Shown one piece after another: positions 25,873 through 60,038 of a stretch of 64,000 bases of DNA. A model generated the notes under the pieces. The model saw only the letters and a program-made list of their open reading frames with translations. It did not search any database and was not told where the DNA came from. The translations under genes were made by a program, and so were the position numbers. The stretch comes from Thermoanaerobaculales bacterium (lineage in GTDB: Bacteria; Acidobacteriota; Thermoanaerobaculia; Thermoanaerobaculales; Sulfomarinibacteraceae), in NCBI GenBank assembly GCA_035358815.1, contig DAOPQC010000002.1, positions 472,207 through 536,206 of the forward strand. Reading direction: 5' to 3'. Every line of letters begins with the position of its first letter. The stretch's first letter is position 1.

Positions 25873-25876
25873 CGCC

Positions 25877-29501: not shown

Positions 29502-29514
29502 TCGGGAGGGCAGC

Positions 29515-37623: not shown

Positions 37624-37627
37624 CATA

Positions 37628-37659: not shown

Positions 37660-37684
37660 AAGGATAGCAGCGATCGGAGAGAGA

Positions 37685-40600: not shown

Positions 40601-40816
40601 GGTGTTGTCCGACACCATGGTCCGCTGACCGGTCACCAGGGCCGGGCCCTCGAGCACGACCGTCGCACCCGCGGTGGCGGTGCCGTCCGGCAGCAGGACC
40701 ACGCCGCTGACCGTTCCGGTCGTGACCGACTGCGCCCAGGCCATCGGCGCAATCATCACCAGGATCGCGCTCAACACGAGGTACACACGCGGTCTGTAGA
40801 TCATGCTTCGGTCCAT
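37685..40816 (-). CDS. Oar-type TonB-dependent outer-membrane receptor with an N-terminal carboxypeptidase-regulatory-like domain
   Basis: The start is set at ATG 40816 (MDRSMIYRPRVYLVLSAILVMIAPMAWAQ) after GGGAGGAG. It contains TGTVSGVVLLPDG...TVTTSLAGF (CarboxypepD_reg-like), a plug region and a long Tyr/Trp/Asp-rich barrel. The terminal residues are LGVKLDF. Confidence 0.85.
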   Translation of the reverse strand: MDRSMIYRPRVYLVLSAILVMIAPMAWAQSVTTGTVSGVVLLPDGTATAGATVVLEGPALVTGQRTMVSDNTGRFAFLSVPTGAYTVTTSLAGFNTNKVENVVVNAGSSIALTIDLAIAASTGEIIVTSEAPIVDTRSSTISTTFSGELLDVLPTGRESFYDLTLTAPGMASVGSDESWLPSPSAYGSAANENIFLVNGVNTTNPRGAPWGSLVQVNYDTVEQVKVLSLGSQAEYGSFSGAAVDVLTKSGSNDFHGSAAYYTQLGDAADNSTLFFGEDWLWADPEEDLTTQPDSNWEATATLGGPILKDKLWFYAGYSHRDSETDTPLWIPLAVYESDLYDLKLTGEFGGNHRAWLGLHYEDNFSGNVTWSPGWDPTMYYDSPVENTTWQFDYQWVISDTNLLGLKYLGFDTDQSPTTPSLVGHPGYINWWKWIGGRAVGTNGDFPYIEAQKSKRDTLQADFTHYAEDWAGSHEIKFGAQYTTANGDWYGGYFQNQANFAYPYGWGYTREYMNNAWWSCDYTWCIAPNDTVAFYNRVYTRHPWLNVRESDSLGFFVDDQWVVSDRVTLNLGLRYDNMTADYGEGKIYEYFDNPSDADNPVEMRSTAAYDVYDFTTWSPRIGVAWDITGDDRTVLRAHAGRYYAPLSVEALRRMGPDMGTYQQDTYYYWFPYEDVDQNGNNWIDPNEVVWATGQLYGMEPAYLQQSQTLDASWRLTVADGTSSPYTDQFNVSLQHQLGKDVAIELSYIYKLTTDFLILEPYNLETGEAFQWESRPYTTWTGYDTEVWSIVVEDFNNDGVIDGTDALYPANNDTRGWRANNLSEWNGQDVDRTYQGLQLVLNKRYSNRWQGSFAINYTDTDGFYPRVVDQNWYIDGPLTMDTPFGSSPNHFQNNLSGPALMTPEIMAKVAGSYTIPVIETDLGVRLRYDSGRAIFPIESYGPFYASWMGAYDPNAVLVGTGWHNFMVADDPEDPDWMPATMILDLSLQKRFGLGDWGGGLTIALDGLNILNEDAPNRVGFAASDYGQVGSIVMPQIFRLGVKLDF

Positions 40817-41123
40817 GGACTCCTCCCTTCCTTCCTCAGATCGGGGATGGTTGCTGGTGGTGCACCCCGGCACGACCGTGGGCGCGACCGGGAAAGGCCG
40901 ACAGGCCGGGCCCGGCGGCTCGGCTCAACCGTTGACTCCCATGTGAGCACTGACTGCGGAGCGGGCGACGGCGAGGGGAGGAGGCCGAGCAGGCCCGGAA
41001 CGCGGCTCCAGCGCGATGGCCACACCGAGCCTTTCCCGCTGACCCTCACCCCGGCGAGCTCGCCCATGACGACCGGCACCGCTCCCTCCCACCCGCACCG
41101 ACGGACGCGGCGGCGTTGCACCA

Positions 41124-41131
41124 GATTATAC
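41124..41131 (-). promoter_or_regulatory. extended -10 promoter candidate (TGTATAAT) for the receptor gene
   Basis: Minus strand reads TGTATAAT. The -35 is poor (CTTTCT). It would give a leader of about 300 nt before ATG 40816. Confidence 0.45.
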
Positions 41132-41379
41132 ACCGGTCTCCAGACGCAGAAAGCCCTGGTCGCCAAGCGGTTTCCGGGCCATGGCTGCGGCCCCGCGGCG
41201 TACCCGACCAGGGATCTTCACCACCTGTCCATGGGCTGGACAACCCGGCGAGGCGTGCCGGCCCCCCCGACCAGCGGCGGCCGCCCCGTCACTGTCGTTG
41301 AACACCCCGGATTTCGGACGCTATCATGGGGCCCGCGACGGGTCCGGTCGCGGGCCACGTCGGGTTGGGGGGGGTTGTC

Positions 41380-42648
41380 ATGCATCGACAGGGTCTCGTG
41401 CTGGCCGGCATCGGCGTGTTTCTCTTTCTCGCGCTGGCGGCGGGACACGCCGAGGCGCAGGCCGCGCGCGTGGTGGTCACGGTGAAGGACGCCGCCGGTC
41501 ACCCGATCGAGGGCGTGACGGTGACCGTGACTTGCGCCGCCAGGTCTGACTACCGCGAGCTGAGAACCACGAGCAAGAAGGGCACCGCCGCCGTAACCCA
41601 CATGGACTGGCTCGAGGCCTACACCTACCTGTTCGAGAAGGAAGGCTACGAGGCCCAGACCCGGGAGGTCCGGCCGGACTACACCGAGACCACCAAGCTG
41701 GAGGTCGTCCTGCCGGCCCGGGTGGCGGTCGCCGCCCCTGCCGCCGAGCCGGCCGCGCCGTCCGGCCGCGGCCGGGCGCTGGCCGCGTTTACCGAGGGCA
41801 CCGAAGCGCACCAGGCGGGGGACCTCGAGCTGGCGGAGAGGAAGTTCCGGCAGGCGGCGGAGCTCAGCCCGGACGCCGCCGAGCCCCACATCGCGCTGTC
41901 GGTGGTGGCCCACGAACGCGGAGACCTCGCCGGGGCGGCGACCGAGGCCGAGGCGGCGCTCAGGATCAGCCCGACCAACGCCCAGGCCCTGTTCCTGCGC
42001 TACGACGCCTACCGGCTGCAGGGCGACGCCGAGAGGACGGCCGCGGCGCTCGAGGCCCTGCGCCAGTCCGGCACCGCGCCGGCGGCGGCCCAGGAGGTCT
42101 TCCGCAAGGGGCTCGACGCACACCGCAGCGGCGACGCCGAGCTCGCGGTGGCGAAGTTCCGGCAGTCGATCGAGCTCGACCCGAGGCTCGCCAACGGCTA
42201 CGTCATGCTCGCGAGCATTGCCCTCAGGAAGGGCGACGTGGCGCAGGCCGCCGAGTTGGTCGGCAAGGCGCTCGAGATCGAGCCGGGCAACGCCAACGCG
42301 CTCAAGGTCCGCTACGACGCGCTGCGCCAGGCCGGCGACGAGGCCGGCGCCAAGCAGGCCCTGGACGCGCTGATCGCGGGCGACCCGGAGTGGGCTGCCA
42401 CCGAGCTCTACAACCACGCGGTCGAGCTCTACAACGCCGACGAGATGGCGAGCGCCGCCGACGCCTTCGAGCGGGTGATCGCGGCCAAGCCGGAGGACGC
42501 GCGGGCCCACTTCCTGCTCGGCATGGCCAAGTACAACATCGGCCAAACCGAGGATGCCAAGACCCACCTGACCAGGTTCCTGGAGCTCGCGCCAGACGAC
42601 CCCGACGCCGCGCTCGCGCGGGAGATGCTGCGCTACGGCTCGAAGTGA
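41380..42648 (+). CDS. secreted protein with an N-terminal carboxypeptidase-regulatory-like Ig domain plus TPR repeats
   Basis: The start is reset to ATG 41380 (MHRQGLVLAGIGVFLFLALAAGHAEAQ). It contains VVVTVKDAAGHPIEGVTVTV, then 7-8 TPR-like 34-mers. Confidence 0.8.
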   Translation: MHRQGLVLAGIGVFLFLALAAGHAEAQAARVVVTVKDAAGHPIEGVTVTVTCAARSDYRELRTTSKKGTAAVTHMDWLEAYTYLFEKEGYEAQTREVRPDYTETTKLEVVLPARVAVAAPAAEPAAPSGRGRALAAFTEGTEAHQAGDLELAERKFRQAAELSPDAAEPHIALSVVAHERGDLAGAATEAEAALRISPTNAQALFLRYDAYRLQGDAERTAAALEALRQSGTAPAAAQEVFRKGLDAHRSGDAELAVAKFRQSIELDPRLANGYVMLASIALRKGDVAQAAELVGKALEIEPGNANALKVRYDALRQAGDEAGAKQALDALIAGDPEWAATELYNHAVELYNADEMASAADAFERVIAAKPEDARAHFLLGMAKYNIGQTEDAKTHLTRFLELAPDDPDAALAREMLRYGSK

Positions 42649-45077: not shown

Positions 45078-45121
45078 AGCCGTTCTCGTGCCGCCGGCCG
45101 CGTGCTACGTCGCGACGTGTC

Positions 45122-45193
45122 GGGCACGGGAACGGGGACGGGCACGGGAACGGGGACGGGCACGGGAACGGGGACGGGCACGGGAACGGGCAC
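45122..45193 (+). repeat. 18-mer G-tract array (GGGCAC GGGAAC GGGGAC) x4, giving 12 evenly spaced G3-4 runs
   Basis: Read directly from the sequence. It starts 45 nt upstream of the mannanase ATG (45077, minus strand), and its last 18 nt overlap the first 272-bp unit. Confidence 0.95.
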
Positions 45194-46128
45194 CCGCCCA
45201 CCCGCGAATGAACCGCTACGAGCGCCAAGAGCGCAAAGTCAACGAAACTCAAACCAAGACGACTGCTTCGCGCCCTTCGCGCCTTGGCGGTTCAAATGGC
45301 CAGCCAACATCCGCCGCGTCCTCCGCGTCCTCGGCGGTTCGATCTGTCCGCAATCGCTTCGGACCAACGCCGGCACCTCGCACGCGGAGCGCGTTCCGCG
45401 CCGCCGGCCGCGCCGCCGGTCGCCAACTCCCTCAGCCACCTCCTCTCGGGAACGGGAACGGCCACCCGCCCACCCGCGATTGAACCGCTGAGATCGCCAA
45501 GAGCGCAAAGTCAACGAAACTTAAACCAAGACGACTGCTTCGCGCCCTTCGCGCCTTGGCGGTTCAAATGGCCAGCCAACATCCGCCGCGTCCTCCGCGT
45601 CCTCGGCGGTTCGATCTGTCCGCAATCGCTTCGGACCAACGCCGGCACCTCGCACGCGGAGCGCGTTCCGCGCCGCCGGCCGCGCCGCCGGTCGCCAACT
45701 CCCTCAGCCACCTCCTCTCGGGAACGGGAACGGCCACCCGCCCACCCGCGATTGAACCGCTGAGATCGCCAAGAGCGCAAAGTCAACGAAACTTAAACCA
45801 AGACGACTGCTTCGCGCCCTTCGCGCCTTGGCGGTTCAAATGGCCAGCCAACATCCGCCGCGTCCTCCGCGTCCTCGGCGGTTCGATCTGTCCGCAATCG
45901 CTTCGGACCAACGCCGGCACCTCGCACGCGGAGCGCGTTCCGCGCCGCCGGCCACGTGTCCACTCGGACCCTTCCTCAGCCATCTCCTCTCGGGAACGGG
46001 AACGGGGACGGGAACGGGAACGGCCACCCGCCCACCCGCGATTGAACCGCTGAGAGCGCCAAGAGCGCAAAGTCAACGAAACTTAAACCAAGACGACCGC
46101 TTCGCGCCCTTCGCGCCTTGGCGGTTCA
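45176..46128. repeat. tandem array of 3.4 copies of a 272-bp structured unit
   Basis: Units begin at 45176, 45448, 45720 and 45992, a period of exactly 272 bp. Units 2 and 3 are identical for about 235 nt. Unit 4 has an expanded hexamer tract and is truncated at 46128. The ORF track shows the same 91-aa peptide three times. Confidence 0.95.
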
Positions 46129-47167: not shown

Positions 47168-49594
47168 ATGAGGTTCGGACACTTCGACGATGCATCCCGC
47201 GAGTACGTCATCGAGACGCCGCGCACCCCCTACCCCTGGATCAACTACCTCGGCACCGAGGAGTTCTTCTCGCTGATCTCGCACACCGCGGGCGGCTACT
47301 GCTTCTATCGCGACGCGCGCTTCCGGCGGCTCCTCCGCTACCGCTACAACAACGTGCCCACCGACGTCGGCGGCCGCTACTTCTACATCCGCGACGGCAG
47401 CGACGTCTGGACGCCGTCGTGGGTGCCGGTCAAGGCCGAGCTCGACCGCTTCTCCTGCCGGCACGGCCTCGGCACGACGCGGATCACCGGGGAGCGGAAC
47501 GGGATCGTCGCCGAGCAGCTGGCGCTGGTGCCGCTCGGCGAGACCGCCGAGGTCCACCAGCTGAGCCTCACCAACACCACCGCAAAGCCGAGGTCCCTGT
47601 CGGTGTTCTCGTTCGTCGAGTTCTGCCTGTGGAACGCCTGGGACGACCAGACCAACTTCCAGCGCAACTTCTCGACCGGCGAGGTCGAGATCGAGGGCAG
47701 CGCGATCTACCACACGACCGAGTACCGCGAGCGCCGCAACCACTACGCGGTGTTCGGGGTCAATGCGGCGATCGCCGGCTTCGACACCGACCGCGAGACC
47801 TTCGTCGGCCGCTGCAACGGCCTCCACGAGCCCGAGGTCGTGCTCGCCGACCGGGCGGCCAACTCGGTGGCGAGCGGCTGGGCGCCGGTCGGCTCCCACC
47901 AGGTCGACGTCAAGCTGGCGGCCGGCGAGACGCGCCGGCTCATCTTCGTGCTCGGCTACGTCGAGAACCCGGCCGCCGACAAGTGGGAGCGGCCTGGCGT
48001 CGTCAACAAGGCGCCGGCGCGCGCCCTGCTCGCGCGCTTCAGCACGCCCGAACAGGTCGAGGCCGCGATCGCGAGGCTGCGCGACCACTGGTCGGAGCTC
48101 CTCTCGGCCTACGTGCTCGACTCGCCGGACGAGCGGCTCAACCGGATGGTCAACACCTGGAACCCCTACCAGTGCATGGTGACCTTCAACCTGTCACGCA
48201 GCGCCTCCTACTTCGAGAGCGGCATCGGCCGCGGCATGGGCTTCCGCGACTCCAACCAGGACCTGCTCGGCTTCGTCCACCTGGTGCCGGCGCGGGCGCG
48301 CGAGCGGATCCTCGACATCGCCGCCACCCAGTTCGCCGACGGCAGCGCCTACCACCAGTACCAGCCGCTGACCAAGCGCGGCAACCACGACATCGGCTCC
48401 GGCTTCAACGACGACCCGCTGTGGCTGATCGAGGGCGTCGCCGCCTACGTCCGGGAGACCGGCGACGAGGCGATCCTGACCGAGGACGTGCCCTTCGACA
48501 ACGAACCTGCCAACAGCGCCAGCCTGTTCGAGCACCTGCGGCGCTCCTTCCACTACACGCTCTCGAACCTCGGCCCGCACGGCCTGCCGCTGATCGGCCG
48601 CGCCGACTGGAACGACTGCCTCAACCTCAACTGCTTCTCCGAGACGCCGGACGAGCCCTACCAGACCACCGCCAACCGCGAGGGCCGCACCGCCGAGTCG
48701 GTGTTCATCGCCGGCCTGTTCGTTCACGCCGCGCCCCTCTTCGCCGAGCTCGCCGAGCTAATGGGCTTCGCCGACGAGGCGGCCGCCGCCCGCGACCACG
48801 CCGCCCGGATGGAGCGGGCGGTGCTCGAGCACGGCTGGGACGGCGAGTGGTTCCTGCGCGCGTACGACTACTTCGGCAACAAGGTCGGCAGCCGCGACTG
48901 CGACGAGGGCAAGATCTTCATCGAGCCGCAGGGCTTCTGCGCGATGGCCGGAATCGGCGTCTCCGACGGCCGGGCAGTGCAGGCGCTCGACTCGGTGAAG
49001 CAGCACCTCGACACCCGCTACGGCATCGTCCTCAACCAGCCCGCCTACTCGACCTACCACGTCGAGCTCGGCGAGATCTCCTCCTACCCGCCGGGCTACA
49101 AGGAGAACGCCGGCATCTTCTGCCACAACAATCCCTGGGTGATGATCGCCGAGACCGTGGTCGGCCGCGGCGACCGGGCGTTCGAGTACTACACCAAGAT
49201 CGCCCCTGCCTGGCTCGAGGAGATCTCCGAGATCCACCGCACCGAGCCCTACGTCTACGCGCAGATGGTGGCGGGCTCGGACGCCGTCCGCCACGGCGAG
49301 GCCAAGAACTCCTGGCTGACCGGCACCGCAGCCTGGAACTGGGTGGCGATCGCGAACCACATCCTCGGCATCCGCCCCGAGCTCGGCGGGCTGCGCGTCT
49401 CGCCCTGCATCGCCGCCGAGATCCCGCACTTCACGGTCACCCGCCGCTGCCGCGGCGCGATCTACCGGATCCGGGTGGTCAACCGGCTCGAGCACAAGGT
49501 GCCACGCCTCAGGGTCAACGGCCGGCCGATCGAGGGCACCCTGGTGCCGTGGGCCCCGGCTGGCGCCACGGTCGAGGTTGAATGCCGAACTTGA
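47168..49594 (+). CDS. GH94 cellobiose phosphorylase
   Basis: The start is reset to ATG 47168. From memory it is collinear with Cellvibrio gilvus CBP: [72 protein letters not shown]. Confidence 0.92.
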
Positions 49595-49826
49595 CTCGCT
49601 TCCGCTTCCGCGCCCGCTTCCGAACGACGGCGCGAAGGCTGGACCTGCGCCCCGTCCCGCCTCCGCTTCCGGGCCCGTCAGCAGATGTTCGAACCGCCGA
49701 GACCGCAGAGGGCGCGGAGAGGTGCGGCGCAAGACCACTCCTCCGCGTGCTCAGCGTGCTCAGCGGTTCAACACAGAATCCGGAAGCGGAAGCGGATGCG
49801 GGCGCGGAAGCGGGTGGGGGTGGAGG
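49595..49826. repeat. intergenic element with a CTTCCG-type arm, a central 86-nt hairpin and a GGAAGC-type arm
   Basis: Arms 49602-49622 and 49793-49813 are complementary at 20 of 21 positions. The central imperfect hairpin spans 49687-49772 (GAACCGC...GCGGTTC). The element fills the gap between the convergent GH94 and lipoprotein genes. Confidence 0.85.
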
Positions 49827-49829: not shown

Positions 49830-51794
49830 CTACCGCGGCTCGCGCAGCACCCTCCGGATGACCTCGGCCTTGGCGGGGTCGGCCGCAATGTGATCCCACT
49901 GCCAGAACACGACGCCGGCCGAGGGCGGCTCGAGCGCGGCCCGCAGGCCGGCCTCGAGCTCGTCGACCGACAGCGCCTCGTCCCGGTAGGCCGCCGCGAC
50001 CTGGATGCTCGGCAGCACCGGGCAGCGTCCGGCCTCGGCGACGTCGCGGACCACCGATGCGATCCACTCCGGCGGACGATAGAGCATGTGCGCGTAGCAC
50101 ATCGGTGACAGGTAGTCGGCGAGGTGGCCGAGGGCCGCGCGGTCCTGGCCGGCGATGCGGCCGATCGCGCCCTCGAAGTCGCCGGTCCGCCACGGCACGA
50201 CGTGGAGGTTCACCCGCAGGTTCGACTTGACCGCCTTGGCAGCCTGGATGATCTGCCACGCCAGCGAGGAGATCGTGTCCTCCTTGAAGGCGGTCCACTC
50301 GGCGGCCGCGTTGGTGCGGATCCAGGCCGCGGCGGCGACCGGGTCGTCGACCGGCAGCTGCGACCCCGGAGCGAGGGTCGCGGCGAAGCGCCGCAGGCAC
50401 TTCGGGCAGTAGCAGGCGTCGGGCAGGCGCGCCGGGTCGGCGTCGGGCCGCACCTCTTCCCAGAACACGAAGTCGCGGATGAAGTCGAGGCTGAGGCCGT
50501 CCGGCCGCAGCTTCTGCACGAGCGCGACCGCCTCGTCGACCCGGCGCTGCCGCAGCTCGTCCCGCGACGGGCAGGCGAACTCCACCCAGTCGTCCTTCGC
50601 CGGCTTACCGTCGGCGGTCACCGCAGAGAGGCTGGGGTCCGCCGCGAGCGCCTCCGGCGCGTAAAGCACCGGGAAGATCACGTAGATCTGGATGCCGGCT
50701 TGCCTCGCGAGCTCTCGGAAGCCCTCGCGCGAGGCGAGCTGCTCGCTCGCGAACACGTGCGTGACGCCGAGCTCCCGCCACCCGGCGAACAGCTCGCCGA
50801 GATCACCGTCAAAGTCGTAGATCTTCACCCCGACGATCGGCCGCGGCGTCGGGTCGTAGCCGTTGGCAGGCGACGCCGCACCGGCAGCTACGAAACCGGC
50901 ATCCGGGCCGGGCGGGAAGACGTCGAGGACCGTGAAGTCGACCCAGTAGAGCCCGGCCGCGTTCGGCACCGCGGCCAGGATCGCCCGGCCGATGTCGCCC
51001 GGCGGGTCAGCGAGCTGGCGCCACCACGGCCGGTCTGACGGGTAGCCGAACTGGAAGGCCACTGGCGCCGGCACGAAGCTGCGGCCCCACGCCGCGAACT
51101 CCTCGACCATCGCGTCGAGCGAGGGCAGGATCTGGCTGTCGTCGACGAACAGCAGGCCGTCGCGCAGCGTCGGCGGCAGCTTGGACTGCTCCCAGTGCTT
51201 GAGGAACAGGCGGTAGCGCGGGTCGTGGCTGCGGATCGCCGCCAGCCACGCCGCCGCCTCCTCGTCGGTGACCGGCTTGCCCTCGGGACGCTCGGTCGAC
51301 TGGTACCACTCGACGTCGATGCCGAAGCCGGCCACGCTCGGGTGGCTGCCGTAGCGGCCGAGCACGAGGTGGATGAGCTCCGCGACCGGCGCGTGGCCGG
51401 GCTCGACCTGCAGCCAGACCCGGAAGCCATTGCGGTCGAAGAGGTCGAGGGCCGCCTGGTTGTGGTCCTCCGGCACCGCGGTGATGAGTGGGCTTGACGG
51501 CTCGGCAGGGAAGTTGAGCTCGGTGCCGTCGCCGCGCAACCGGCCGACGATCCAGATCGTCTCGGGCACCGCGCCGTCGAAGCGCGACGCCATCTCCTGT
51601 CCGACCCGCAGCCAGTACTCGGGCCCGGGGTCGCGCTGCGGCCCGTAGGCCGAGAAGCGGAAGCCGGCGCCGAGCGGCCGGCCGGCGCCGGGCTCCGGGC
51701 CGCCGTCACCCGCCGAGCCGCAGCCCATCGGGAGGAGCCCGACGGCCACCGCCACCATCGAGAGCCACCCGAGCCTGAACCGCGCAAACCTCAT
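49830..51794 (-). CDS. lipoprotein with two tandem TIM-barrel-like, glycoside-hydrolase-like domains of unknown specificity
   Basis: 654 aa. Lipobox LLPMGC. The second half (DFIRDFVFWEE, CYCPKCLRRF, NLHVVPW) resembles uncharacterised GH-like (GHL/DUF4015-type) families. An ATGA overlap links it to the upstream ROK kinase gene. Confidence 0.7.
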   Translation of the reverse strand: MRFARFRLGWLSMVAVAVGLLPMGCGSAGDGGPEPGAGRPLGAGFRFSAYGPQRDPGPEYWLRVGQEMASRFDGAVPETIWIVGRLRGDGTELNFPAEPSSPLITAVPEDHNQAALDLFDRNGFRVWLQVEPGHAPVAELIHLVLGRYGSHPSVAGFGIDVEWYQSTERPEGKPVTDEEAAAWLAAIRSHDPRYRLFLKHWEQSKLPPTLRDGLLFVDDSQILPSLDAMVEEFAAWGRSFVPAPVAFQFGYPSDRPWWRQLADPPGDIGRAILAAVPNAAGLYWVDFTVLDVFPPGPDAGFVAAGAASPANGYDPTPRPIVGVKIYDFDGDLGELFAGWRELGVTHVFASEQLASREGFRELARQAGIQIYVIFPVLYAPEALAADPSLSAVTADGKPAKDDWVEFACPSRDELRQRRVDEAVALVQKLRPDGLSLDFIRDFVFWEEVRPDADPARLPDACYCPKCLRRFAATLAPGSQLPVDDPVAAAAWIRTNAAAEWTAFKEDTISSLAWQIIQAAKAVKSNLRVNLHVVPWRTGDFEGAIGRIAGQDRAALGHLADYLSPMCYAHMLYRPPEWIASVVRDVAEAGRCPVLPSIQVAAAYRDEALSVDELEAGLRAALEPPSAGVVFWQWDHIAADPAKAEVIRRVLREPR

Positions 51795-52669
51795 GCTGTT
51801 GCCCCCGTCCCGCCGCCCGCGGTCATCGCGTCGACGTAGAGCGCCGCCGCCCCGAGCACGGCCGCGTCCGCGAGCTCGCTCGCCTCGATGACCAGCCGCT
51901 CGATCACGTGCGGGTAGGCGAAGGCGGCGAGCCCTGCCCGCATCGGCGCTTCGAAGAGGTCGAACGCCGCCGCGATCGATCCGCCCAGGATCACGGCCTC
52001 GGGGTCGTAGGCGCAGCAGACGATCATCACCGCCTCGGCGAGCTCGCGGCCGAAGCGCTCGAAGAGCGCGATCGCCGCCGCGTCACCGGAGCGCGCCCGC
52101 TCGTGGGCCTCGCCCCCCGACACCCCGCCCTCGCGCAGGAAGAAGCGGCCGGCGCACCAGTCCTCGAGCGTGAGGCCCTTGTGCGGCATGGCGCCGATCT
52201 CGCCGGCACAGCAGTTACGGCCGCTGTGCAGGAGGCCGCCGATGATCACGCCGGTCCCGAGGCCGGTGCCGAGCGTCAGCCCGACCAGGTCGCGGTACGC
52301 CCGCCCCTTGCCGAACACGTGCTCGCCGACGGCGAAGGCGTTGGCGTCGTTGTTGACGTACGTCGGCACGGAGAAGCGCCGCTCGAGCACCGCCTTCAGC
52401 GGCACCCGCTTCCAGGACGGGATGTTCTCGACCTCGAACACGGTTCCCGTCGCGACGTCGACCACGCTCGGCACGCCGCAGCCGATGCCGACCACCTGCT
52501 CGTCATGGAGCTCGGCGATCGCGGACGCGATCTCCTCGAGCACCACCTGCTCGGCGGCCTGGCCGGAAATCGGCCGGCTGACGGCGCGGGCGACCCTGCC
52601 ACCCGCGACCGCGCCGACCCTGACCTTGGTGCCGCCGAGGTCGACCCCGATGATGGTTCCCTCGCCCAC
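51791..52669 (-). CDS. ROK-family sugar kinase (glucokinase / GlcN / GlcNAc kinase-like)
   Basis: 292 aa with a GTG start 7 nt after GGGAGG. Motifs: IIGVDLGGTKVRVG, VNNDANAFAVGE, GLTLGTGLGTGVI, CAGEIG. Confidence 0.85.
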   Translation of the reverse strand: MGEGTIIGVDLGGTKVRVGAVAGGRVARAVSRPISGQAAEQVVLEEIASAIAELHDEQVVGIGCGVPSVVDVATGTVFEVENIPSWKRVPLKAVLERRFSVPTYVNNDANAFAVGEHVFGKGRAYRDLVGLTLGTGLGTGVIIGGLLHSGRNCCAGEIGAMPHKGLTLEDWCAGRFFLREGGVSGGEAHERARSGDAAAIALFERFGRELAEAVMIVCCAYDPEAVILGGSIAAAFDLFEAPMRAGLAAFAYPHVIERLVIEASELADAAVLGAAALYVDAMTAGGGTGATA

Positions 52670-52690
52670 GGCCCAACCTCCCTGGTGGCG

Positions 52691-53968
52691 TCATCCCCTG
52701 CCGCGGCCGGTCAGGCTCGCCAGCAGCTCGCGCGGCGTGACGGTGGCGTTGTCGACCAGCGGCTTCGCCCACAGCCCGATCGAGAAGATGTAGCCGAGGG
52801 TCAGAAAGAGCAGCGTCATGGCGGCCCGCAGCCCGATCTGGTCGCCGATCGCGCCGACCAGCCACGGCACCACCGCGCCGCCGAGGATCCCGCTGCACAG
52901 GATCCCGGAGAACGAACCGTGGTGCTCGGCGACCGAGTTCAGCGCGAGCGAGAAGACGATCGACCACATCACCGACAGGAAGAAGCCGAACGCCATGAAG
53001 GCGAGCCGCGAGACCGAGGCTGGGCCCGAGAGCGCCACCACGAGGCTCAGCATGGCCGCGGTCGTGAAGCCGACCAGCACGCGCCGCGCGTCGATCAGCT
53101 TCAGCAGCAGCAGGCCGAGCAGGCAGCCGGCGGTCATCAGGCCCCAGAAGTAGGAGACGGTGCGCGCGCCCTCCACCTGGGGGTCGAGCCCGTGGTAGAC
53201 CTCGAGGAAGCGGGACACCCAGTTGGCGACTCCCTGCTCGGTGCCGACGTAGGCGAAGATCCCGAAGAAAAAGAGCCAGACGTAGCGATTGCGGAGCAGC
53301 TCGCGGTAGGTCGAGGCTCCGCCGGTGCGCTCGTCGGCCTTGAGCTCGACCCTGGGCAGCCGGACCGAGGCCAGCACCAGGACCATGACCGCGGTGACCA
53401 CCGTGAAGACCCAGTAGAGCGACACCCAGGGCAGCGCCGGCGGCACGATCCCGGCGAGCAGCCCGAGCACCCCGTCGGCCGGACGCGGGTCGGCCTGGAG
53501 TCGCGCCACCAGGAACGAGTAGACGTGGGGGCTCAGGAACGAGGCCGAGCCGAACACCAGCTGCGCCATCACCGAGAAGAAGGCGAAGTGCTCCTCGCCA
53601 CCCGCCACCCGCAGCAGCGGGTTGATCGCCACCTGCAGCATGGTCATGCCGATGCCAATCGAAAACAGCGACACCAGCGCCACTGCGAAGGTCGGGAAGC
53701 TCGCGAACAGGAACGAGCCGCCGAAGGCGAGCACGAAGGCGGCGACCAGGATCGGCTTGTGGCCGAAGCGCTCGAGCAGCACCCCGGCCGGGATCGACAT
53801 CACGCCGTAGGCGACGAAGAACGAGAACGGCAGGAAGCCGGCCAGGGTCAGGCTCAGGCTGAAGCCCTTGATGATGTCCGGCACCAGCGGCCCCAGGATG
53901 TTGGTCAGGAAGGAGATCACGAAGAAGATCAGGAACACGAGCAGGACGATCGCCATGCTCCGCTTCAT
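52691..53968 (-). CDS. MFS sugar:H+ symporter (FucP/GluP-type)
   Basis: 425 aa with 12 predicted TM segments. The N-terminal pattern FFVISFLTNILGPLVPDIIKGF is typical of glucose/galactose/fucose permeases. Confidence 0.85.
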   Translation of the reverse strand: MKRSMAIVLLVFLIFFVISFLTNILGPLVPDIIKGFSLSLTLAGFLPFSFFVAYGVMSIPAGVLLERFGHKPILVAAFVLAFGGSFLFASFPTFAVALVSLFSIGIGMTMLQVAINPLLRVAGGEEHFAFFSVMAQLVFGSASFLSPHVYSFLVARLQADPRPADGVLGLLAGIVPPALPWVSLYWVFTVVTAVMVLVLASVRLPRVELKADERTGGASTYRELLRNRYVWLFFFGIFAYVGTEQGVANWVSRFLEVYHGLDPQVEGARTVSYFWGLMTAGCLLGLLLLKLIDARRVLVGFTTAAMLSLVVALSGPASVSRLAFMAFGFFLSVMWSIVFSLALNSVAEHHGSFSGILCSGILGGAVVPWLVGAIGDQIGLRAAMTLLFLTLGYIFSIGLWAKPLVDNATVTPRELLASLTGRGRG

Positions 53969-54015
53969 GCGCTCACCCCTCGTTCTGCGCCGCCGTGCGG
54001 CGCCTCATCCTCGCG

Positions 54016-56694
54016 TCAGCTCGCGCCCGGCCGACCGCCTTCGGCCGCGCCGGCCGCGAGCGTCACCACCATCTCGGGCACATTCCAGCCGGCGGCCTGC
54101 ACGAGCGCGCCGTCGAGCGAGCCGGCACCGGGCACCCGCACCCGCAGCAGCCGCTCCTCGCCCGGCAGCAGCGTCACGTAGTTGTCGTCCCACAGCACCG
54201 GCAGGATAGACTTCCCCGCCGCGTCGACCAGCCGCAGCTCGATGAAGAAGGCGACCGCCTCGCTCGGGTTGCGGAGCCGGACCGTGACCTCGGGGCCGGC
54301 CGCCGGATGCTCGACCGCGGCCTCGAGCTCGAGACCAACCTCGGGCAGCTGGTCGAGCGCCGAGAAGTCGGCGAAGCTCTTGGTCGGGGTCACGAACCAC
54401 AGGCTATTGCCCCAGTCGAGCACGTCCTCGGTGGTCGACAGCCAGTAGAAGTTGCGGGCGATCTCGCTCCCCTCGCGGTCGGCAAGCCGCAGGTCGAGGA
54501 ACCAGACCGGGGTCGGCGGCTTGACATCGGCGAGTGACAGCACGAGAGCCGAGGACGCGCCGTCGATGCTCGCCTCCCGCGTCGCGCTCTCAAACTCGCG
54601 GCCGTGCAGGTCGAGGGCGCGGACGGTCGCGACGCCGTCACGGCGCGCCAGCGTGTCGTTGACCAGGTGGACGGTCCGGTCGTGGTAGTTGTAGGCCAGG
54701 CTCAGCGGCCGGCAGGCGGCGCGCGCGCCGTAGAACGCGCCGTTGGGCATCAGGTCGTGGCCGTAGAGCTGCCAGTACATCTCCGGCCAGGCCGAGTTGA
54801 GCATCCACTGAATCACCCCGGTGGTCAGCGGCCGGTTGACCGCGAACGCCTCGAACATCGGCCGCATCGCCTCGTAGCTCGCCGCCTGCGCCTTGCGCAG
54901 GAACTCCTCGACGCCCGCCGACGGGCCATAGCGCCGGTCAAGAGCCTCGATGAAGCGGTTCATCTGGTTGAACTCGTTGCGGCCGCAGTGGTAGTCCCAG
55001 ACCTCGTCGACCGGCCACAGGTGCTCGGGCGGGATCATCCGCTTGACGCTCTCGAGCGGCGGCGGCTGCGGGCCGGGGCCGGTCTCGGTGTTGAAGCCGT
55101 AGGCACCGCCGCGCTCGCGGTCCTCGTACCAGTAGCGCGGCGGCACCCAGTCGTACGGCCCATTCATCTTGACCCCGCTCGGGCCGCTCACCTCGCTCTC
55201 CAGCCAGCCGCAGGAGACGAGGGACGGGCGGCTGGTGTCGGACATCGCGAGCACCGCCTGGTACTGCCGCTCGAGGTCGGGGTGCGGCAGCAGGTCGCTC
55301 GCCAGCACCCAGGTGAAGATGCTCGGGTGGTTGCGCAGGTAGCGCACCTGGTCGCCGAGCGACGCCGCCACCAGCGCCATCTCCTCAGGCTCGAGCACGC
55401 CTCCATACTGCTCGTCGACCGGCTTGCCGAGGTAGTCCTCCCACTCCCACTGGCAGCTCCAGCCCGGCATGATCAGCACGCCCTCGCGGTCGGCAATGTC
55501 GTACAGCGCCTGGCTCGATCCCCAGAAGCCCTCGAGCCGGATGGTGTTGAGGCCCATGTGCTTGACGTAGGCGATCTGGGCCTCGAGCTTCTCCGGCGTG
55601 TCGGCGAGCAGCGGGTCATCGACCCAGCCGCCGCCGCGCACCAGCACCGGCTTGCCGTTGACGGTGAAGCCGCGGTGGCCCTGCTCGTTGAAGGAGGTGC
55701 CGACCTCACGCACGCCGAAGGTGACGTCGGTCGAGTCGGACAGGCGGTCGCCGGCGAACGCCGTGGCCCGCAGCGAGTAGAGCTCGGGCTTGCCCAGGGT
55801 GTGCGGCCACCAAAGGCGCGGTGCATCGAGCTTGAGGACCGGGTGCTGGTCCGCGGCGAAGCGCACGACCGTCTGCTGCCCCGGCTCGAGCGCGACCTCG
55901 GTCTGGAACGCGGACCCCTCGAGCTCGCCCCTGGCGGTCGCGGTCAGCGCCTCCTCGCCGTGGTTGGTCAGCAGCATCTCCACGGTGAGCTCGGCCGAGG
56001 CCAGGGTGTCGAGGTCGACGTCGGAGCGGACGAAGACCTCGTCCACCGACACCGGGCCGGTCAGACGCAGGGCCACCGGCCGCCAGAGGCCCATGTTGCG
56101 GTCGGGCGGCCGCGGGTTCCAGTCGACGAAGCCGATCGTGAAGTCGCCGGGCTGCGGCGGCAGGACCTCCACTGCCAGAGCGTTGACCCCTGGACGGACG
56201 TGGCCGGCGAGGTCGAGGGAGTGCACCCGGAAGGCGCCGACGATCTCGTCGGCCGAGGCCAGCTGGGCGCCGTTGACCCAGACGTTGGCGCGGTAGTTGA
56301 TCCCCTCGAAGATCAGGCGCGCGGAGCCCCCAGCCTCACGCTTGCTGAGGGTGAACTCGGTCCGGTACCACCATGGCGCGTCGAACTGCTCGGTGGGCAC
56401 CTCCTCGAGGTTGGTGCCGAGGTAAAGGTCGGGGTAGCGGCCGGCGGCGACCAGCGCCGCCATCGGCGTCGCGGGCACCGAGGTCGCGACCCAGGCACCG
56501 GCATCGAAGCCCGGCGTCGACAGCGCGGCGCCGTCGTCGCCCGCATCCGCCGCCGCCGAGATCCGCCACCCGTCGGCGAGCTCGCGCCGGTTGGTCATGG
56601 GCGCCTCCCGCCCTGCGCAGCTCGAGAGAACGAGGAGCGCGCACGAGGCCGCGGCCAGCGACGACACCCTGGAGTGGACCGAGGGAGCTGGCAT
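54016..56694 (-). CDS. GH2 family exo-glycosidase of the beta-mannosidase / exo-beta-D-glucosaminidase (CsxA-like) clade, lipoprotein
   Basis: This is the real part of a 2020-aa run-on ORF; the start is set at ATG 56694 (892 aa). Signal/lipobox LVLSSC. Motifs: WWYRTEF, LIFEGINYRANVWVNG, NTIRLEGFWG, PGWSCQWEWE. Confidence 0.85.
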   Translation of the reverse strand: MPAPSVHSRVSSLAAASCALLVLSSCAGREAPMTNRRELADGWRISAAADAGDDGAALSTPGFDAGAWVATSVPATPMAALVAAGRYPDLYLGTNLEEVPTEQFDAPWWYRTEFTLSKREAGGSARLIFEGINYRANVWVNGAQLASADEIVGAFRVHSLDLAGHVRPGVNALAVEVLPPQPGDFTIGFVDWNPRPPDRNMGLWRPVALRLTGPVSVDEVFVRSDVDLDTLASAELTVEMLLTNHGEEALTATARGELEGSAFQTEVALEPGQQTVVRFAADQHPVLKLDAPRLWWPHTLGKPELYSLRATAFAGDRLSDSTDVTFGVREVGTSFNEQGHRGFTVNGKPVLVRGGGWVDDPLLADTPEKLEAQIAYVKHMGLNTIRLEGFWGSSQALYDIADREGVLIMPGWSCQWEWEDYLGKPVDEQYGGVLEPEEMALVAASLGDQVRYLRNHPSIFTWVLASDLLPHPDLERQYQAVLAMSDTSRPSLVSCGWLESEVSGPSGVKMNGPYDWVPPRYWYEDRERGGAYGFNTETGPGPQPPPLESVKRMIPPEHLWPVDEVWDYHCGRNEFNQMNRFIEALDRRYGPSAGVEEFLRKAQAASYEAMRPMFEAFAVNRPLTTGVIQWMLNSAWPEMYWQLYGHDLMPNGAFYGARAACRPLSLAYNYHDRTVHLVNDTLARRDGVATVRALDLHGREFESATREASIDGASSALVLSLADVKPPTPVWFLDLRLADREGSEIARNFYWLSTTEDVLDWGNSLWFVTPTKSFADFSALDQLPEVGLELEAAVEHPAAGPEVTVRLRNPSEAVAFFIELRLVDAAGKSILPVLWDDNYVTLLPGEERLLRVRVPGAGSLDGALVQAAGWNVPEMVVTLAAGAAEGGRPGAS

Positions 56695-56829
56695 CGAATC
56701 ACCCCCACCATGATGCCGTCGAATTGTGACATGGCCGCGGCGAAAGCGGCGCCCGCCTCGCTTCGTTGCAGCGTATATACTCTCGGCGGCGACGCCGCCG
56801 CACGCACGGGGAGCACACAGGGAGGCGCC

Positions 56830-57867
56830 ATGGGCCTGAGGGACGAGATCCTGGACCAGCCGGCTGCCGTCGCCCGCCTGCTCAACGGCCAGGCCGGGAC
56901 GGTCGCCGAGGTCGCGCGGCGCATCCGCGATCGCGCGCCACGCCTCGTCTACATCGCCGCCCGCGGCAGCTCCGACAACGCTGGCCTCTACGCGAAGTAC
57001 CTGTGGGGGGCGCACAACCGGCTCCCGGTGGCGCTCGCCACGCCATCCCTGTTCAGCGTCTACTCCTCGCCGCCGGCCCTCGGCGAGGCGCTGGTCGTGG
57101 GCATCTCGCAGTCCGGGCAGTCGCCCGACATCGTCAGCGTCGTCGAGGAGGGCCGGCGCCAGGGCGCGCTGACCCTGGCCATCACCAACGACCCCACATC
57201 GCCGCTCGCCGGCGCGGCCGAGCTGGTCATCGACACCATGGCCGGCCCGGAGCTCGCGGTCGCAGCGACCAAGACCTACACCACCCAGCTCGCCGCGATC
57301 GCCATGATCTCGACCGCCCTCTCCGGCGACGCCGGGCAGCAGGCCCGGCTCGCGCGCGCCCCGGCCCTGATTGGCGAGGCGCTGGCGCTCGAGGACACGA
57401 TCGCCGCAGCCTCGGCGCGCTACCGCTACATGTCGCAGGGCGTGGTGCTCGGCCGTGGCTTCAACTACGCCACCGCGTTCGAGTGGGCGCTCAAGCTCAA
57501 GGAGCTCGCCTACGTCGCCGCCGAGCCCTACTCGTCGGCCGACTTCCAGCATGGCCCGGTGGCGCTGGCGAGCCGCGGCTTCCCGGTGTTCGCGGTGGTC
57601 GCCGGCGGACGCATGGCCGACAACATCCGCGCGCTGCTCGCGCGGCTGGTCGCCGAGCAGGGTGTAGAGCTGCTGGCGATCGCCAACGACGCCGAGTCTC
57701 TCGCGCTCGCGCACACGCCGCTGCCGCTGCCCGCCGACCTGCCGGAGTGGCTGTCGCCGATCCCGGCGATCGTGCCGGCGCAGCTCCTGTGCTACCACCT
57801 GACCCGGGCCCGAGGCTTCGACACCGAGGGCCCGCGCGGACTGACCAAGGTCACCCTCACCTGGTGA
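56830..57867 (+). CDS. SIS-domain sugar-phosphate isomerase/deaminase (GlmS-C-terminal-like; GlmD / NagB-II type glucosamine-6-P deaminase candidate)
   Basis: The start is reset to ATG 56830 after GGGAGG. It has two SIS repeats: IAARGSSDNAGLYAKY, VGISQSGQSPD, VAATKTYTTQL, EWALKLKELAYV. Confidence 0.85.
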   Translation: MGLRDEILDQPAAVARLLNGQAGTVAEVARRIRDRAPRLVYIAARGSSDNAGLYAKYLWGAHNRLPVALATPSLFSVYSSPPALGEALVVGISQSGQSPDIVSVVEEGRRQGALTLAITNDPTSPLAGAAELVIDTMAGPELAVAATKTYTTQLAAIAMISTALSGDAGQQARLARAPALIGEALALEDTIAAASARYRYMSQGVVLGRGFNYATAFEWALKLKELAYVAAEPYSSADFQHGPVALASRGFPVFAVVAGGRMADNIRALLARLVAEQGVELLAIANDAESLALAHTPLPLPADLPEWLSPIPAIVPAQLLCYHLTRARGFDTEGPRGLTKVTLTW

Positions 57868-57885
57868 GCCAAGGAACCGGAGGTC

Positions 57886-59079
57886 ATGATGCGCCGTTCG
57901 ATCCCATCGTCCACCGCCGCCTCGCACCGGCTCCTCGTGCCGGCCCTGCTGCTCCTCGGCGCAGGCCTCGCCGCCGGCCTCGCCTGGACGCAGCAGCCTG
58001 CCGAACCCGACGGCCCGCTCCCTGTGCGCGGCTTCTGCATCGCGGCGCCGCTGCCGGACGGCGTCGACGCCTTCATCGACTTCATCGAGCAGGAGCTTGC
58101 TCCGGCCTCGATCAACACCCTGGTGCTGCGCGTCGACTACAACTTCGAGTACGAGTCCCAGCCCGAGCTGCGCGACGAGGTGGCGCTGAGCGGCAAGCAG
58201 GTCAAGAAGATCGTCAAGGCCTGCCGCCGGTCCGGGATCCGCGTCATCCCCCAGATCAACCTGCTCGGCCACCAGTCGTGGGAGGACGAGCTCATTGGCC
58301 TGCTCCGCGTCCACCCGGAGTTCGATGAGACGCCCCACATCCCGCTGCCCGAGGTCTATGTGTGGCCGAACCCGGACGGGCTCTACTGCAAGAGCTACTG
58401 CCCGCTCCACCCGCAGCTGCACTCGGTGGTGTTCCCGTTGATCGACGAGCTGCTCGAGGCCTTCGAGGCCGACGCCTTCCACGCCGGCATGGACGAGGTC
58501 TTCTACATCGCCGACCCCAAGTGCCCGCGCTGCGGCGGCCGCGATCCGGCGGAGCTGTTCGCGGGCGAGGTGACGGCGATCCGCAACCACCTGGCGTCGC
58601 GGGGCGCCGAGCTGTGGATCTGGGGCGACCGCCTGATCGACGGCAAGACCACCGGGATCGGGATGTGGGAAGCGAGCATGAACAACACCCACCGCGCGGT
58701 CGACCTCATCCCCAAGGACGTCGTGATCGCCGACTGGCACTACGAGCGCGCCGACCCGACTGCCCCCTACTTCGCGGTCAAGGGCTTCAAGGTCGTCAGC
58801 TGCCCGTGGCAGTTCGCGGAGGTCGCCTCCGCCCACATCCGCGCGACCCTCGAGTCGCGACGGACGTCGACCCCCGAGATGCGGGAGCGCTTTGCCGGCG
58901 TCATGCAGACGGTGTGGGCCCCTGCCGAGTCCTTCCTCGACCAGTTCTACGGCCGGGTCCCGCCCGACCGCGAGCGGGGCGACCCGATCGACTGCTGCAA
59001 GCGCTACCTTGCCGAGATGAAGGAGCTCGCGGGCCAGCCACAGCCGGCGGCCGCCGGCGGCGGCGGTCACTCGCCGTAG
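57886..59079 (+). CDS. secreted GH20-like catalytic-domain-only protein (distant hexosaminidase homolog)
   Basis: 397 aa with a signal peptide. It is TIM-barrel-like, and FHAGMDEV resembles the GH20 H-x-G-x-D-E catalytic motif. The assignment is tentative. Confidence 0.65.
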   Translation: MMRRSIPSSTAASHRLLVPALLLLGAGLAAGLAWTQQPAEPDGPLPVRGFCIAAPLPDGVDAFIDFIEQELAPASINTLVLRVDYNFEYESQPELRDEVALSGKQVKKIVKACRRSGIRVIPQINLLGHQSWEDELIGLLRVHPEFDETPHIPLPEVYVWPNPDGLYCKSYCPLHPQLHSVVFPLIDELLEAFEADAFHAGMDEVFYIADPKCPRCGGRDPAELFAGEVTAIRNHLASRGAELWIWGDRLIDGKTTGIGMWEASMNNTHRAVDLIPKDVVIADWHYERADPTAPYFAVKGFKVVSCPWQFAEVASAHIRATLESRRTSTPEMRERFAGVMQTVWAPAESFLDQFYGRVPPDRERGDPIDCCKRYLAEMKELAGQPQPAAAGGGGHSP

Positions 59080-60038
59080 AAGTTCTTGTCCCAGGCGTGG
59101 CGGCGCAGGATCGCGAGCGTCGCCTCGTCGAGCGTCCCCTGTTCGGACACCGCCAGGTTGGCATCGACGTGGCGGACAGTCCTCATGCCGGGGATCACGG
59201 TGCTGACCGCTGGATGCGAGAGGCAGAAGCGCAGCGCGATCTCGGGCAGCGTGCCCGCGACGCCCGCGAGGTCCCGGCGCAGGGCCGCCACCCGCTCCTC
59301 GACCTGCCGCGGCCGGTCGCCCGCGAAGTACTCGGCGCGGAAGTCGCCCGGGTCGAAGACCGTCGTCGCGGTGATCGCCCCGGTCAGGGCGCCCTCGTCG
59401 AACGGCACCCGCGCGATGACGCCGACCCCCACCTCGCGGGCGAGCGGCAGCAGTCGGCGCTCCGGGCTCTGGTCGAAGATGTTGTAGATCACCTGCACCG
59501 CGTCGACCAGGCCGCTGCCCACCAGCTCGAGCGCCGAGTCGGGATCGTGATCGTTGATCGAGACCCCGACCGCCCGCGCCTTGCCCGACGCCTTGAGGTC
59601 GGAGAAGGCCCGGCGCCAGTCGTCGCTTGCGAACCACTCCGGGTTCCACACGTGCAGCTGCTGCAGGTCGAGGGCCTCCAACCGGAGGTTGCGCAGGCTC
59701 TGCTCGGTGCATGCCATCACGTAGTCGTAGGGGAAGACCTCCTCGATCCCGATCCCTCGCCGCGCCGGCCACTGCTCGTTCTTCGGCGGAACCTTGGAGG
59801 CGACGAACACCGGCCTCCCGGCCTCCCGCACCACCTCGCCGACCAGCCGCTCGCTGTGGCCGTCGCCGTACGCGAGCGCGGTGTCGATGAAGTTGAGCCC
59901 GAGCTCGATCGACCGCCGGAGCGCGCGCCGCGCCTCGGCGTCGGTCCGGCCGAGCCACTGCACCCCGCCGACTCCCCATGCGCCGTAGGAGACCTCGCTG
60001 ACCTCGAAGCCGGTCCTGCCGAGCCTGCGGTACCTCAC
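59067..60038 (-). CDS. aldo/keto reductase
   Basis: The start is reset to GTG 60038, giving (M)RYRRLGRTGFEVSEVSYGAWGVGG, the canonical AKR N-terminus. It contains IDTALAYGDGHSE. Its 3' end overlaps the convergent GH20-like gene by 13 nt. Confidence 0.85.
   Translation of the reverse strand: MRYRRLGRTGFEVSEVSYGAWGVGGVQWLGRTDAEARRALRRSIELGLNFIDTALAYGDGHSERLVGEVVREAGRPVFVASKVPPKNEQWPARRGIGIEEVFPYDYVMACTEQSLRNLRLEALDLQQLHVWNPEWFASDDWRRAFSDLKASGKARAVGVSINDHDPDSALELVGSGLVDAVQVIYNIFDQSPERRLLPLAREVGVGVIARVPFDEGALTGAITATTVFDPGDFRAEYFAGDRPRQVEERVAALRRDLAGVAGTLPEIALRFCLSHPAVSTVIPGMRTVRHVDANLAVSEQGTLDEATLAILRRHAWDKNFYGE

Follow-up and report, generated by a model that had tools for sequence, protein, structure and literature searches.

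A candidate bacterial route for glucosamine-containing oligosaccharides in a Thermoanaerobaculales locus, with an unannotated two-barrel lipoprotein

Free-glucosamine pathways and the Thermoanaerobaculales locus

Chitin and its deacetylated forms constitute a major carbon and nitrogen pool in soils and sediments, where the mostly uncultured Acidobacteriota are abundant. Good descriptions of routes that run via free glucosamine (GlcN) rather than N-acetylglucosamine (GlcNAc) come mostly from Thermococcales archaea and from a small number of actinomycetes, and the chitin pathway of Thermococcus kodakarensis comprises the deacetylase Tk-Dac, GlmA, an ADP-dependent GlcN kinase and GlmD. In this archaeal pathway (PMC6566704), an exo-glucosaminidase yields GlcN, a kinase turns it into glucosamine-6-phosphate (GlcN-6-P) and a SIS-type deaminase produces fructose-6-phosphate. 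We suggest that the same lower-half logic may operate in a locus at positions 49830-59079 of a 64,000-nucleotide stretch of DNA (the window) from a Thermoanaerobaculales bacterium of the Acidobacteriota, and that this locus is probably a bacterial route for beta-linked oligosaccharides that contain GlcN, derived from chitosan or from chitin that has lost part of its N-acetyl groups, a proposal that rests on homology, structural models and gene context.

Six open reading frames (ORFs) make up the locus. The minus strand carries genes for a protein of glycoside hydrolase (GH) family 2 (54016-56694; 892 amino acids), an MFS permease (52691-53968), a ROK-family sugar kinase (51791-52669; 292 amino acids) and a 654-residue lipoprotein modelled as two TIM barrels (49830-51794); on the plus strand, across a divergent intergenic region of 135 bp (56695-56829), lie genes for a protein with two SIS domains (56830-57867) and for a secreted single-domain GH20 protein (57886-59079). 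An earlier note on this DNA, made from the sequence alone, had read the locus in this way, and its six ORFs are all present at the coordinates and on the strands given there, in frames with coding periodicity of G+C at third codon positions and in sequence of about 70% G+C. The ATGA by which the stop codon of the ROK gene overlaps the start codon of the lipoprotein gene is real, and so is the divergent spacer, which holds Shine-Dalgarno-like sequences for the first gene on either side. Public assemblies of a Thermoanaerobaculales metagenome-assembled genome (MAG) contain identical copies of the locus with the gene order unchanged.

In the pathway that we propose, the two lipoproteins and the one secreted enzyme would act in the periplasm or at the cell surface. 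There, the GH2 protein would take GlcN off non-reducing ends, the GH20 protein would cut after GlcNAc while tolerating a sugar in the -2 subsite, so that it may free GlcNAc or an X-GlcNAc disaccharide, and the two-barrel lipoprotein would depolymerise or trim partially deacetylated chains, as its fold, domain fusions and gene neighbours suggest. Free GlcN would enter through the MFS permease, the ROK kinase, whose family is plain and whose sugar specificity we read from context, would convert it to GlcN-6-P, and the SIS protein, which keeps the catalytic residues of its family, would be expected to turn GlcN-6-P into fructose-6-phosphate and ammonia. Homology argues strongly for the predicted GH2 and SIS steps and moderately for the predicted GH20 step, and gene context points to the presumed roles of the transporter and the kinase.

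This would be a route analogous to the archaeal pathway and no copy of it, because the SIS protein is of the NagB-II type (234 bits, against 49 bits for GlmD) and the glucosaminidase belongs to GH2, whereas GlmA belongs to GH35. The two further differ in that the kinase is a ROK protein rather than an ADP-dependent one, that the locus is without a Dac-type deacetylase and that depolymerisation is proposed to be extracytoplasmic. The earlier note had proposed a glucosamine/chitosan route on the archaeal pattern; the GH2 subfamily and the SIS residues uphold the route, the fit to the archaeal pathway is one of analogy, and the upstream half that the note placed at 17.4-23.9 kb is not established (see below). 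The Shewanella-type GlcNAc pathway (NagP, NagK, NagB-II, NagA) shares with the locus an FHS-family MFS permease and a SIS-type NagB-II deaminase; unlike it, the window has no NagA, its permease and deaminase score below the curated cut-offs, and the cassette is tied to a GH2 subfamily specific for GlcN. The pathway is a variation on a known type, and the part of the locus that could be new is the two-barrel lipoprotein. No description of the cassette or of the two-barrel family was found in the literature.

Predicted enzymes of the route

On sequence grounds we regard it as settled that the GH2 protein is a predicted exo-beta-D-glucosaminidase of the CsxA type, subfamily GH2_16, rather than a beta-mannosidase. 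It aligns over residues 7-878 of 892 with CsxA of Amycolatopsis orientalis, a GH2_16 enzyme of solved structure (PDB 2VZS, 2X09), at 570 bits and E 6e-170 (2VZS), which is 455 bits above its score against the beta-mannosidase BtMan2A (115 bits, E 2e-32), and it contains the Ig_GlcNase domain PF18368 (E 1.4e-30). In the 2025 subdivision of GH2, the glucosaminidases of GH2_16 have a strictly conserved Ser-Asp for the Asn-Glu of other GH2 enzymes and a Glu for the Trp of mannosidases (PMC12243196); this Glu, residue 394 of CsxA, binds the C2 amine, and other GH2 enzymes have His or Trp there (PMC6566704, PMC12243196). Alignment pairs E388, S466, D467 and E537 of the window protein with E394, S468, D469 and E541 of CsxA, so that Ser466-Asp467 stands at the Asn-Glu site, Glu388 stands at the mannosidase Trp site and the nucleophile, Glu537, is kept; the Asn-Glu and Trp that mark beta-mannosidases of the BtMan2A type (GH2_13) are both missing. 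All four signature residues also occur in 20 GH2 genes that have a relative of the two-barrel protein no more than 10 kb away; as an internal control, the W/N/E/E pattern of mannosidases is seen in two unrelated GH2 genes from this set of loci (L051 and L073). The earlier note had called the gene CsxA-like and had pointed to the amine-binding residues; the comparison of scores and the presence of both Glu388 and the Ser-Asp motif bear this out, and the beta-mannosidase that the note retained as a hedge is contradicted by the same residues, the Ig_GlcNase domain and the CsxA score.

CsxA is a secreted actinobacterial enzyme with a C-terminal module, a CBM35 (CBM, carbohydrate-binding module); the window protein, by contrast, comes from a diderm acidobacterium, is a lipoprotein and lacks this module: its end aligns with CsxA residue 897, and CsxA 898-1032 has no counterpart. 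Translation from position 56694 gives a lipoprotein signal with an LVLSSC lipobox. The public annotation of the MAG starts the gene at Met33, for a product of 860 amino acids, and thereby loses the conserved signal peptide. Because the lipobox Cys stands at the equivalent place in nearly all GH2 orthologues, after a lipoprotein signal peptide, this shorter start is probably wrong and the enzyme is probably exported.

The permease, a presumed glucosamine importer of the fucose/glucose/galactose/NagP (FHS) type, matches MFS_1 and, below the curated NCBIfam cut-offs, gluP (TIGR01272, 134 bits) and NagP (NF046060, 69 bits). The ROK protein, a presumed glucosamine kinase, matches PF00480 at E 6e-45 over residues 7-278 of its 292, has the ROK fold with its N-terminal ATP-binding motif and is of the kinase type, without a helix-turn-helix or other DNA-binding domain. 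Its best NCBIfam match is the ROK glucokinase subfamily, again below the cut-off, with GlcNAc kinases matching too, and its closest solved relatives are glucokinases, PDB 3VGK being the best match. Classical ROK kinases bind zinc through a CxCGxxGC motif; in the translation, the sequence that follows the GEIG motif reads AMPHKGLTLEDWCAGRFF and contains no CxCG, so the classical motif is missing. A preference of this kinase for GlcN is what its context would suggest.

In Pfam, the protein encoded at 56830-57867 has two SIS domains and no glutaminase domain. Its best full-length NCBIfam match is NagB-II (NF046059, Shewanella SO3506) at 233.8 bits, and among PDB sequences it matches 3FJ1 at 2e-49 and the solved GlcN-6-P deaminase 8EOL at 2e-42. 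It keeps the phosphate loop S347-Q348-S349 of E. coli GlmS together with K485, E488, H504 and K603, with Ser in place of T352, and we presume it to be a GlcN-6-P deaminase of the NagB-II / GlmS-isomerase type. Where the earlier note had offered a SIS-type deaminase like GlmD or NagB-II, it is the bacterial NagB-II half of that suggestion, along with the GlmS catalytic set, that holds, and the archaeal GlmD half that does not.

The last gene of the plus-strand pair was described in that note as GH20-like, which proves too cautious: the protein matches the GH20 family itself (PF00728, E 7e-11) and belongs to a characterised subgroup, CUPP group 19.1, with Niako3494 (PDB 8BAL) matched at E 1.3e-95 and TrdeGH20 (9FYM) at E 2e-65. 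Members of this group have a catalytic Asp-Glu pair after strand beta-4, a stabilising Tyr two residues past a conserved Trp in the loop after beta-6, and a cysteine cluster (PMC11776370). In the alignment with 8BAL these fall in HAGMDE, DWHYE and CPRCGG of the window protein, which also shares the Asn/His of subsite -2. By the same description, the cleft of group members is open and includes a -2 subsite, their active site is strongly negative and those that were assayed act on para-nitrophenyl N-acetyllactosamine (pNP-LacNAc), lacto-N-biose (LNB) or 6-sulfo-GlcNAc substrates, and Arg77 of Niako3494, where the group consensus is Asp/Asn, blocks the -2 subsite (PMC11776370). The window protein differs from Niako3494 in having Asp at the Arg77 position and in its context, which is one of GlcN rather than of LacNAc or 6-sulfo-GlcNAc. 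It may free X-GlcNAc units, such as GlcN-GlcNAc, for the GH2 enzyme to finish.

The two-barrel lipoprotein and its relatives

The 654-residue lipoprotein has no Pfam or NCBIfam match and no significant match to PDB sequences in either single-sequence or family-profile searches; a marginal match to hyaluronidases of GH56 (E 0.12) was distrusted. It begins with a signal sequence whose Cys is the majority residue across the family. AlphaFold2, run with 36 homologues, models two TIM barrels at a mean pLDDT of 87.6 for the whole protein and 95.3 for the first barrel on its own, and these confident models agree with the double-barrel lipoprotein anticipated by the earlier note. We refer to the barrels as domain A (residues ~40-300; 50895-51677) and domain B (residues ~320-654; 49833-50837), both on the minus strand. 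No paralogue of either domain was found elsewhere in the window.

A fold search with the whole protein was led by the hydrolase domains (GH153) of PgaB and BpsB, which act on partially deacetylated poly-beta-1,6-GlcNAc (dPNAG), at E 1e-13 and TMt 0.67-0.70, followed by Cwp19 (GHL10), beta-amylase, GH42 and GH164; we assign the PgaB match to domain B because the alignment lengths and a local profile match fit this domain. That local match, from hmmsearch at maximum sensitivity, covers 40 residues only (496-534 of the window protein against PgaB 502-543), and hhalign of the family profile with E. coli PgaB gave no meaningful alignment. Family members have weak matches to GHL10, GH42, DUF4015 and GHL13, the last in 8 of the 36 homologues and not in the window protein. 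The invariant columns of domain B comprise a cluster of four cysteines (C408 and C461-x-C463-x-x-C466), a pattern known as the zinc site of GH42, together with D437, R440 and W445-E446. D437 is a candidate equivalent of the catalytic Asp D474 on strand beta-4 of Bordetella PgaB.

Domain A is a compact TIM barrel for which the fold search returned no close solved relative, the best match being a GH5 protein at E 1.4e-4 and members of GH18 reaching TM ~0.5. Its invariant residues lie at the C-terminal ends of the strands (E131, D160-x-E162-W163, K199-H200, D218-D219, Q248, Y251 and W284-x-D286). Strand beta-4 bears a D-x-E pair and beta-7 lacks a carboxylate, a pattern that is reminiscent of the N-acetylhexosaminidase families that use substrate assistance and that may point to cleavage after GlcNAc by the same means. 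Membership of GH18 was considered and rejected, since PF00704 does not match, the D-x-E remnant (GIDVEW) falls short of DxxDxDxE, and a TM of ~0.5 is no better than the GH5 match.

Relatives of the two-barrel protein occur in 233 species-level genomes, among them several classes of Acidobacteriota, Aminicenantes, Bacteroidota (mostly with domain B alone), Neomarinimicrobiota/Fidelibacterota, KSB1 and one Heimdallarchaeota MAG. Their architectures are A-B, B-A, A-A-B and an A-B pair preceded by carbohydrate esterase family 4 (CE4-A-B), the CE4 domain being nearest, weakly (E 1e-7), to chitin deacetylases. Domain A by itself yields 612 cluster representatives, many of them stand-alone secreted proteins of ~300 amino acids, and in 44 multidomain representatives its commonest partner is CE4 (7/44), other partners being CBM5/12 (3/44), DUF2334 (3/44) and GH18 chitinases with an intact catalytic motif (2/44). 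The gene neighbourhoods of these fusion proteins are mostly short contigs. One of them (L095, 253-4311), in which a gene for a BcrAD_BadFG-family, sugar-kinase-like protein and one for a membrane protein precede a fusion of GH18 to domain A (P0126), is a further case in which domain A keeps company with a family of amino-sugar kinases.

We examined synteny in the 80 best related loci, counting the genes that lie no farther than 10 kb from the two-barrel relative. Genes for GH2_16 enzymes were present in about 20 of these loci, MFS genes in 19 and ROK genes in 18, across several lineages and with a shuffled order, GH2-MFS-ROK-AB in the window and AB-GH2-MFS-ROK in Aminicenantes; in another locus (L078), separate tblastn matches to domain B and domain A lie at opposite ends of the cassette. 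One relative has the cassette among genes for CE4, PIG-L, YdjC, GH35/42 (GlmA-like) and GH9 proteins, and another has the order PIG-L-MFS-ROK-CE4::A-B. Only the closest relatives (L009, L010, L015 and L042) have SIS and GH20 genes along with the cassette, and a small GH20 gene adjoins the two-barrel gene in three loci without GH2, one labelled Neomarinimicrobiota and two unclassified. GH2_16, MFS, ROK and the two-barrel protein form the conserved core, with SIS and GH20 as additions.

We posit, as a hypothesis well supported by the modelled fold, the domain fusions and the gene neighbours, that the two-barrel lipoprotein is a chitin- or chitosan-active enzyme of a new family. Like PgaB, which cleaves deacetylated polymer only (PMC5933820), it is predicted to act on a partially deacetylated polymer, and its CE4-fused relatives recall the CE4-GH153 architecture of PgaB and BpsB. 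It differs from PgaB in that its membership cannot be detected by sequence, in its GH42-like Cys4 cluster and its extra barrel, domain A, and in the setting of the window gene, which lies in a catabolic operon whereas PgaB is biosynthetic. A more specific and quite tentative version, to which we give rather less than even odds, is that the lipoprotein represents one or two undescribed glycoside hydrolase families for partially de-N-acetylated chitin, domain A being a minimal barrel of ~260 residues that would cleave after GlcNAc with substrate assistance and domain B one that resembles GH153 and GH42 and has a metal site of four cysteines; alongside GH2_16 and the GH20 enzyme with its open cleft, the lipoprotein would permit a chitinase-independent mining of chitosan-like polymers in Acidobacteriota and other uncultured phyla.

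Alternative readings, surroundings and significance

Several results weigh against the proposed route. Neither the kinase nor the permease reaches any curated equivalog cut-off, and sequence does not reveal which sugar each is specific for; the SIS protein, at 233.8 bits against the 430-bit cut-off of the NagB_SO3506 equivalog, is a relative and no certified equivalog; the catalytic residues named for the two-barrel protein are guesses, and in many distant relatives its gene has unrelated neighbours. The window, moreover, contains no recognisable gene for an endo-chitinase, a chitosanase, NagA or a CE4 enzyme, so that the window alone does not account for where the GlcN-containing substrate comes from or what becomes of GlcNAc. 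The chief rival reading differs in the polymer: the CBM5/12, GH18 and CsxA links favour chitosan or deacetylated chitin, and the PgaB fold favours dPNAG-like beta-1,6 polymers. The substrate of CsxA, the closest characterised GH2 enzyme, is beta-1,4 chitosan; chitin-binding CBM5/12 modules and GH18 chitinases occur as fusion partners of domain A; the fused CE4 domains are nearest to chitin deacetylases; and the likeness to GH153 is at fold level only, GHL13 being weakly matched in a minority of the family and missing from the window protein. We hence think it unlikely that the target is another GlcN polymer, foremost the dPNAG of biofilm matrices, on which the two-barrel protein would correspond to the GH153 domain of PgaB and the GH20 protein to dispersin B, even though the PgaB and BpsB domains are the best structural matches of domain B, the CE4 fusions mirror the architecture of PgaB, and the only other known PNAG hydrolase belongs to GH20 (PMC5933820).

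It is also possible, if somewhat doubtful, that the two-barrel lipoprotein is no hydrolase of the pathway at all and instead serves for binding or as a scaffold or, as a mere neighbour, acts enzymatically on an unrelated glycan: it has no sequence-level relative of known function, its distant homologues often keep other company, and PgaB's C-terminal domain was itself long seen as a binding domain (PMC5933820). Such a role fits poorly with the invariant acidic and aromatic residues grouped at the C-terminal ends of the strands in each barrel, with a cassette that is kept across lineages despite its shuffled order and a window gene that overlaps the ROK stop codon, and with the fusion of domain A to catalytic and chitin-binding modules. 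The likeness of the permease to NagP and of the SIS protein to Shewanella NagB-II SO3506, the matches of the ROK protein to GlcNAc kinases and the presence of a GH20 gene would all suit a GlcNAc pathway that varies the Shewanella/Xanthomonas type (NagP, kinase, NagB-II), in which the gene for NagA would stand elsewhere, the kinase would act on GlcNAc and the GH2 enzyme would be no more than an accessory; we give this a small chance, as neither the locus nor the window contains NagA and it is the GlcN-specific GH2_16 gene, not GH20 or NagA, that travels with the MFS and ROK genes across lineages. That the GH2 protein is a beta-mannosidase, and the locus part of the neighbouring mannan genes, we consider barely credible: GH130, 2-epimerase, GH27 and GH5 genes do share the window, and the protein has weak Pfam matches to mannosidase Ig domains, but the lead of CsxA over BtMan2A, the Ser-Asp for Asn-Glu, the Glu for Trp and the Ig_GlcNase domain all stand against it. 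The route for GlcN-containing oligosaccharides from chitosan or partially de-N-acetylated chitin is the reading that we retain.

The upstream half of the pathway, which the earlier note had sought in a PIG-L deacetylase and a GH20 gene at 17.4-23.9 kb, is not established as part of this route. The GH20 gene (21772-23901) heads a plus-strand operon (21772-31449) in which a secreted, full-length GH20 protein is followed by an SSF transporter, a GlcNAc-2-epimerase-family protein, GH130, GH27 and a SASA esterase, and which looks like a route for mannan or N-glycans (of the Man-GlcNAc phosphorylase type) rather than for chitin. The PIG-L gene (17466-18326) lies ~31 kb from the locus in a different operon, and orthology of its product with the cassette-linked PIG-L proteins of relatives (L001 and L006) was rejected, there being no BLAST-detectable similarity. 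This minus-strand operon (17466-21754) encodes an SSF transporter, a 471-residue protein without a family match (its ROK/sugar-kinase similarity is marginal, E ~0.5) and, as a cytoplasmic protein, the PIG-L deacetylase; together these may serve the transport, phosphorylation and deacetylation of an N-acetylated sugar. Genes for YdjC-family (ChbG-like deacetylase family), GH88 and GH3 (ExoP-like) proteins lie at 10601-15754, the YdjC ORF, at 10.6 kb, having a long low-complexity N-terminal extension that is probably untranslated.

Next to the locus, the GH94 protein was considered as a chitobiose phosphorylase and rejected (453 bits, against 1267 bits to cellobiose phosphorylase); by its sequence it is a cellobiose phosphorylase, and with two GH5 genes it forms what we take as a separate cellulose-type set. 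At the other end, an aldo-keto reductase gene on the minus strand (59067-60038) runs towards the GH20 gene, the two sharing 13 bp at the 3' end of the latter; in L006, an orthologue with 49% identity stands beside the cassette, with PIG-L and YdjC genes on either side of it, a position from which a functional link to the cassette is possible. A set comprising a CarboxypepD_reg-type TonB-dependent receptor, a 'sulfatase'-TPR protein, a CarboxypepD_reg-TPR protein and an RraA-like protein (31771-32613 and 35148-42648) recurs beside the glucosamine cassette in several other genomes (L001, L006, L033, L035-L037, L078, L089 and L091), and may be an uptake system for the same substrate. The 'sulfatase'-TPR protein, membrane-anchored and of the alkaline-phosphatase superfamily, was considered as a sulfatase for sulfated amino sugars and set aside, having TTRADR and not the formylglycine motif C/S-x-P-x-R.

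No regulator gene is present in the locus, where a scan for sigma-70 promoters and terminators gave nothing above chance and the divergent spacer had no sigma-70 consensus match. Between the convergent GH94 and lipoprotein genes, a palindromic element of 231 nt (49592-49822), with inverted (CTTCCG)n and (CGGAAG)n arms, folds at -145 kcal/mol (z-score -7.4) and probably marks the end of the minus-strand operon; a scan of the window against Rfam found no family. Similar intergenic elements, inverted arrays of (CCCGTT)n/(GGGAAC)n or (CTTCCG)n/(CGGAAG)n around short cores, occur at 10285-10326/10751-10799, 37577-37625, 43799-43828/43926-43962, 45120-45204, 45990-46038 and, within the element just described, 49595-49640/49775-49815, and may be bidirectional terminators or a family of mobile palindromic elements. 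A 272-nt unit, present in three to four tandem copies of 93-98% identity at 45157-46128, lies in the non-coding gap between a GH5 and an SDR gene; it is flanked by (GGGAAC)n hexamer arrays and has no Rfam match.

The locus provides a concrete, testable bacterial version of the route through free glucosamine. It also nominates the two-barrel family, which is widespread and unannotated, as a missing component of chitin and chitosan processing. If the two-barrel protein proves active, it would found new CAZy families, and it would supply enzymes for the production of defined chitosan oligomers or for use against the GlcN-containing polymers of biofilms.

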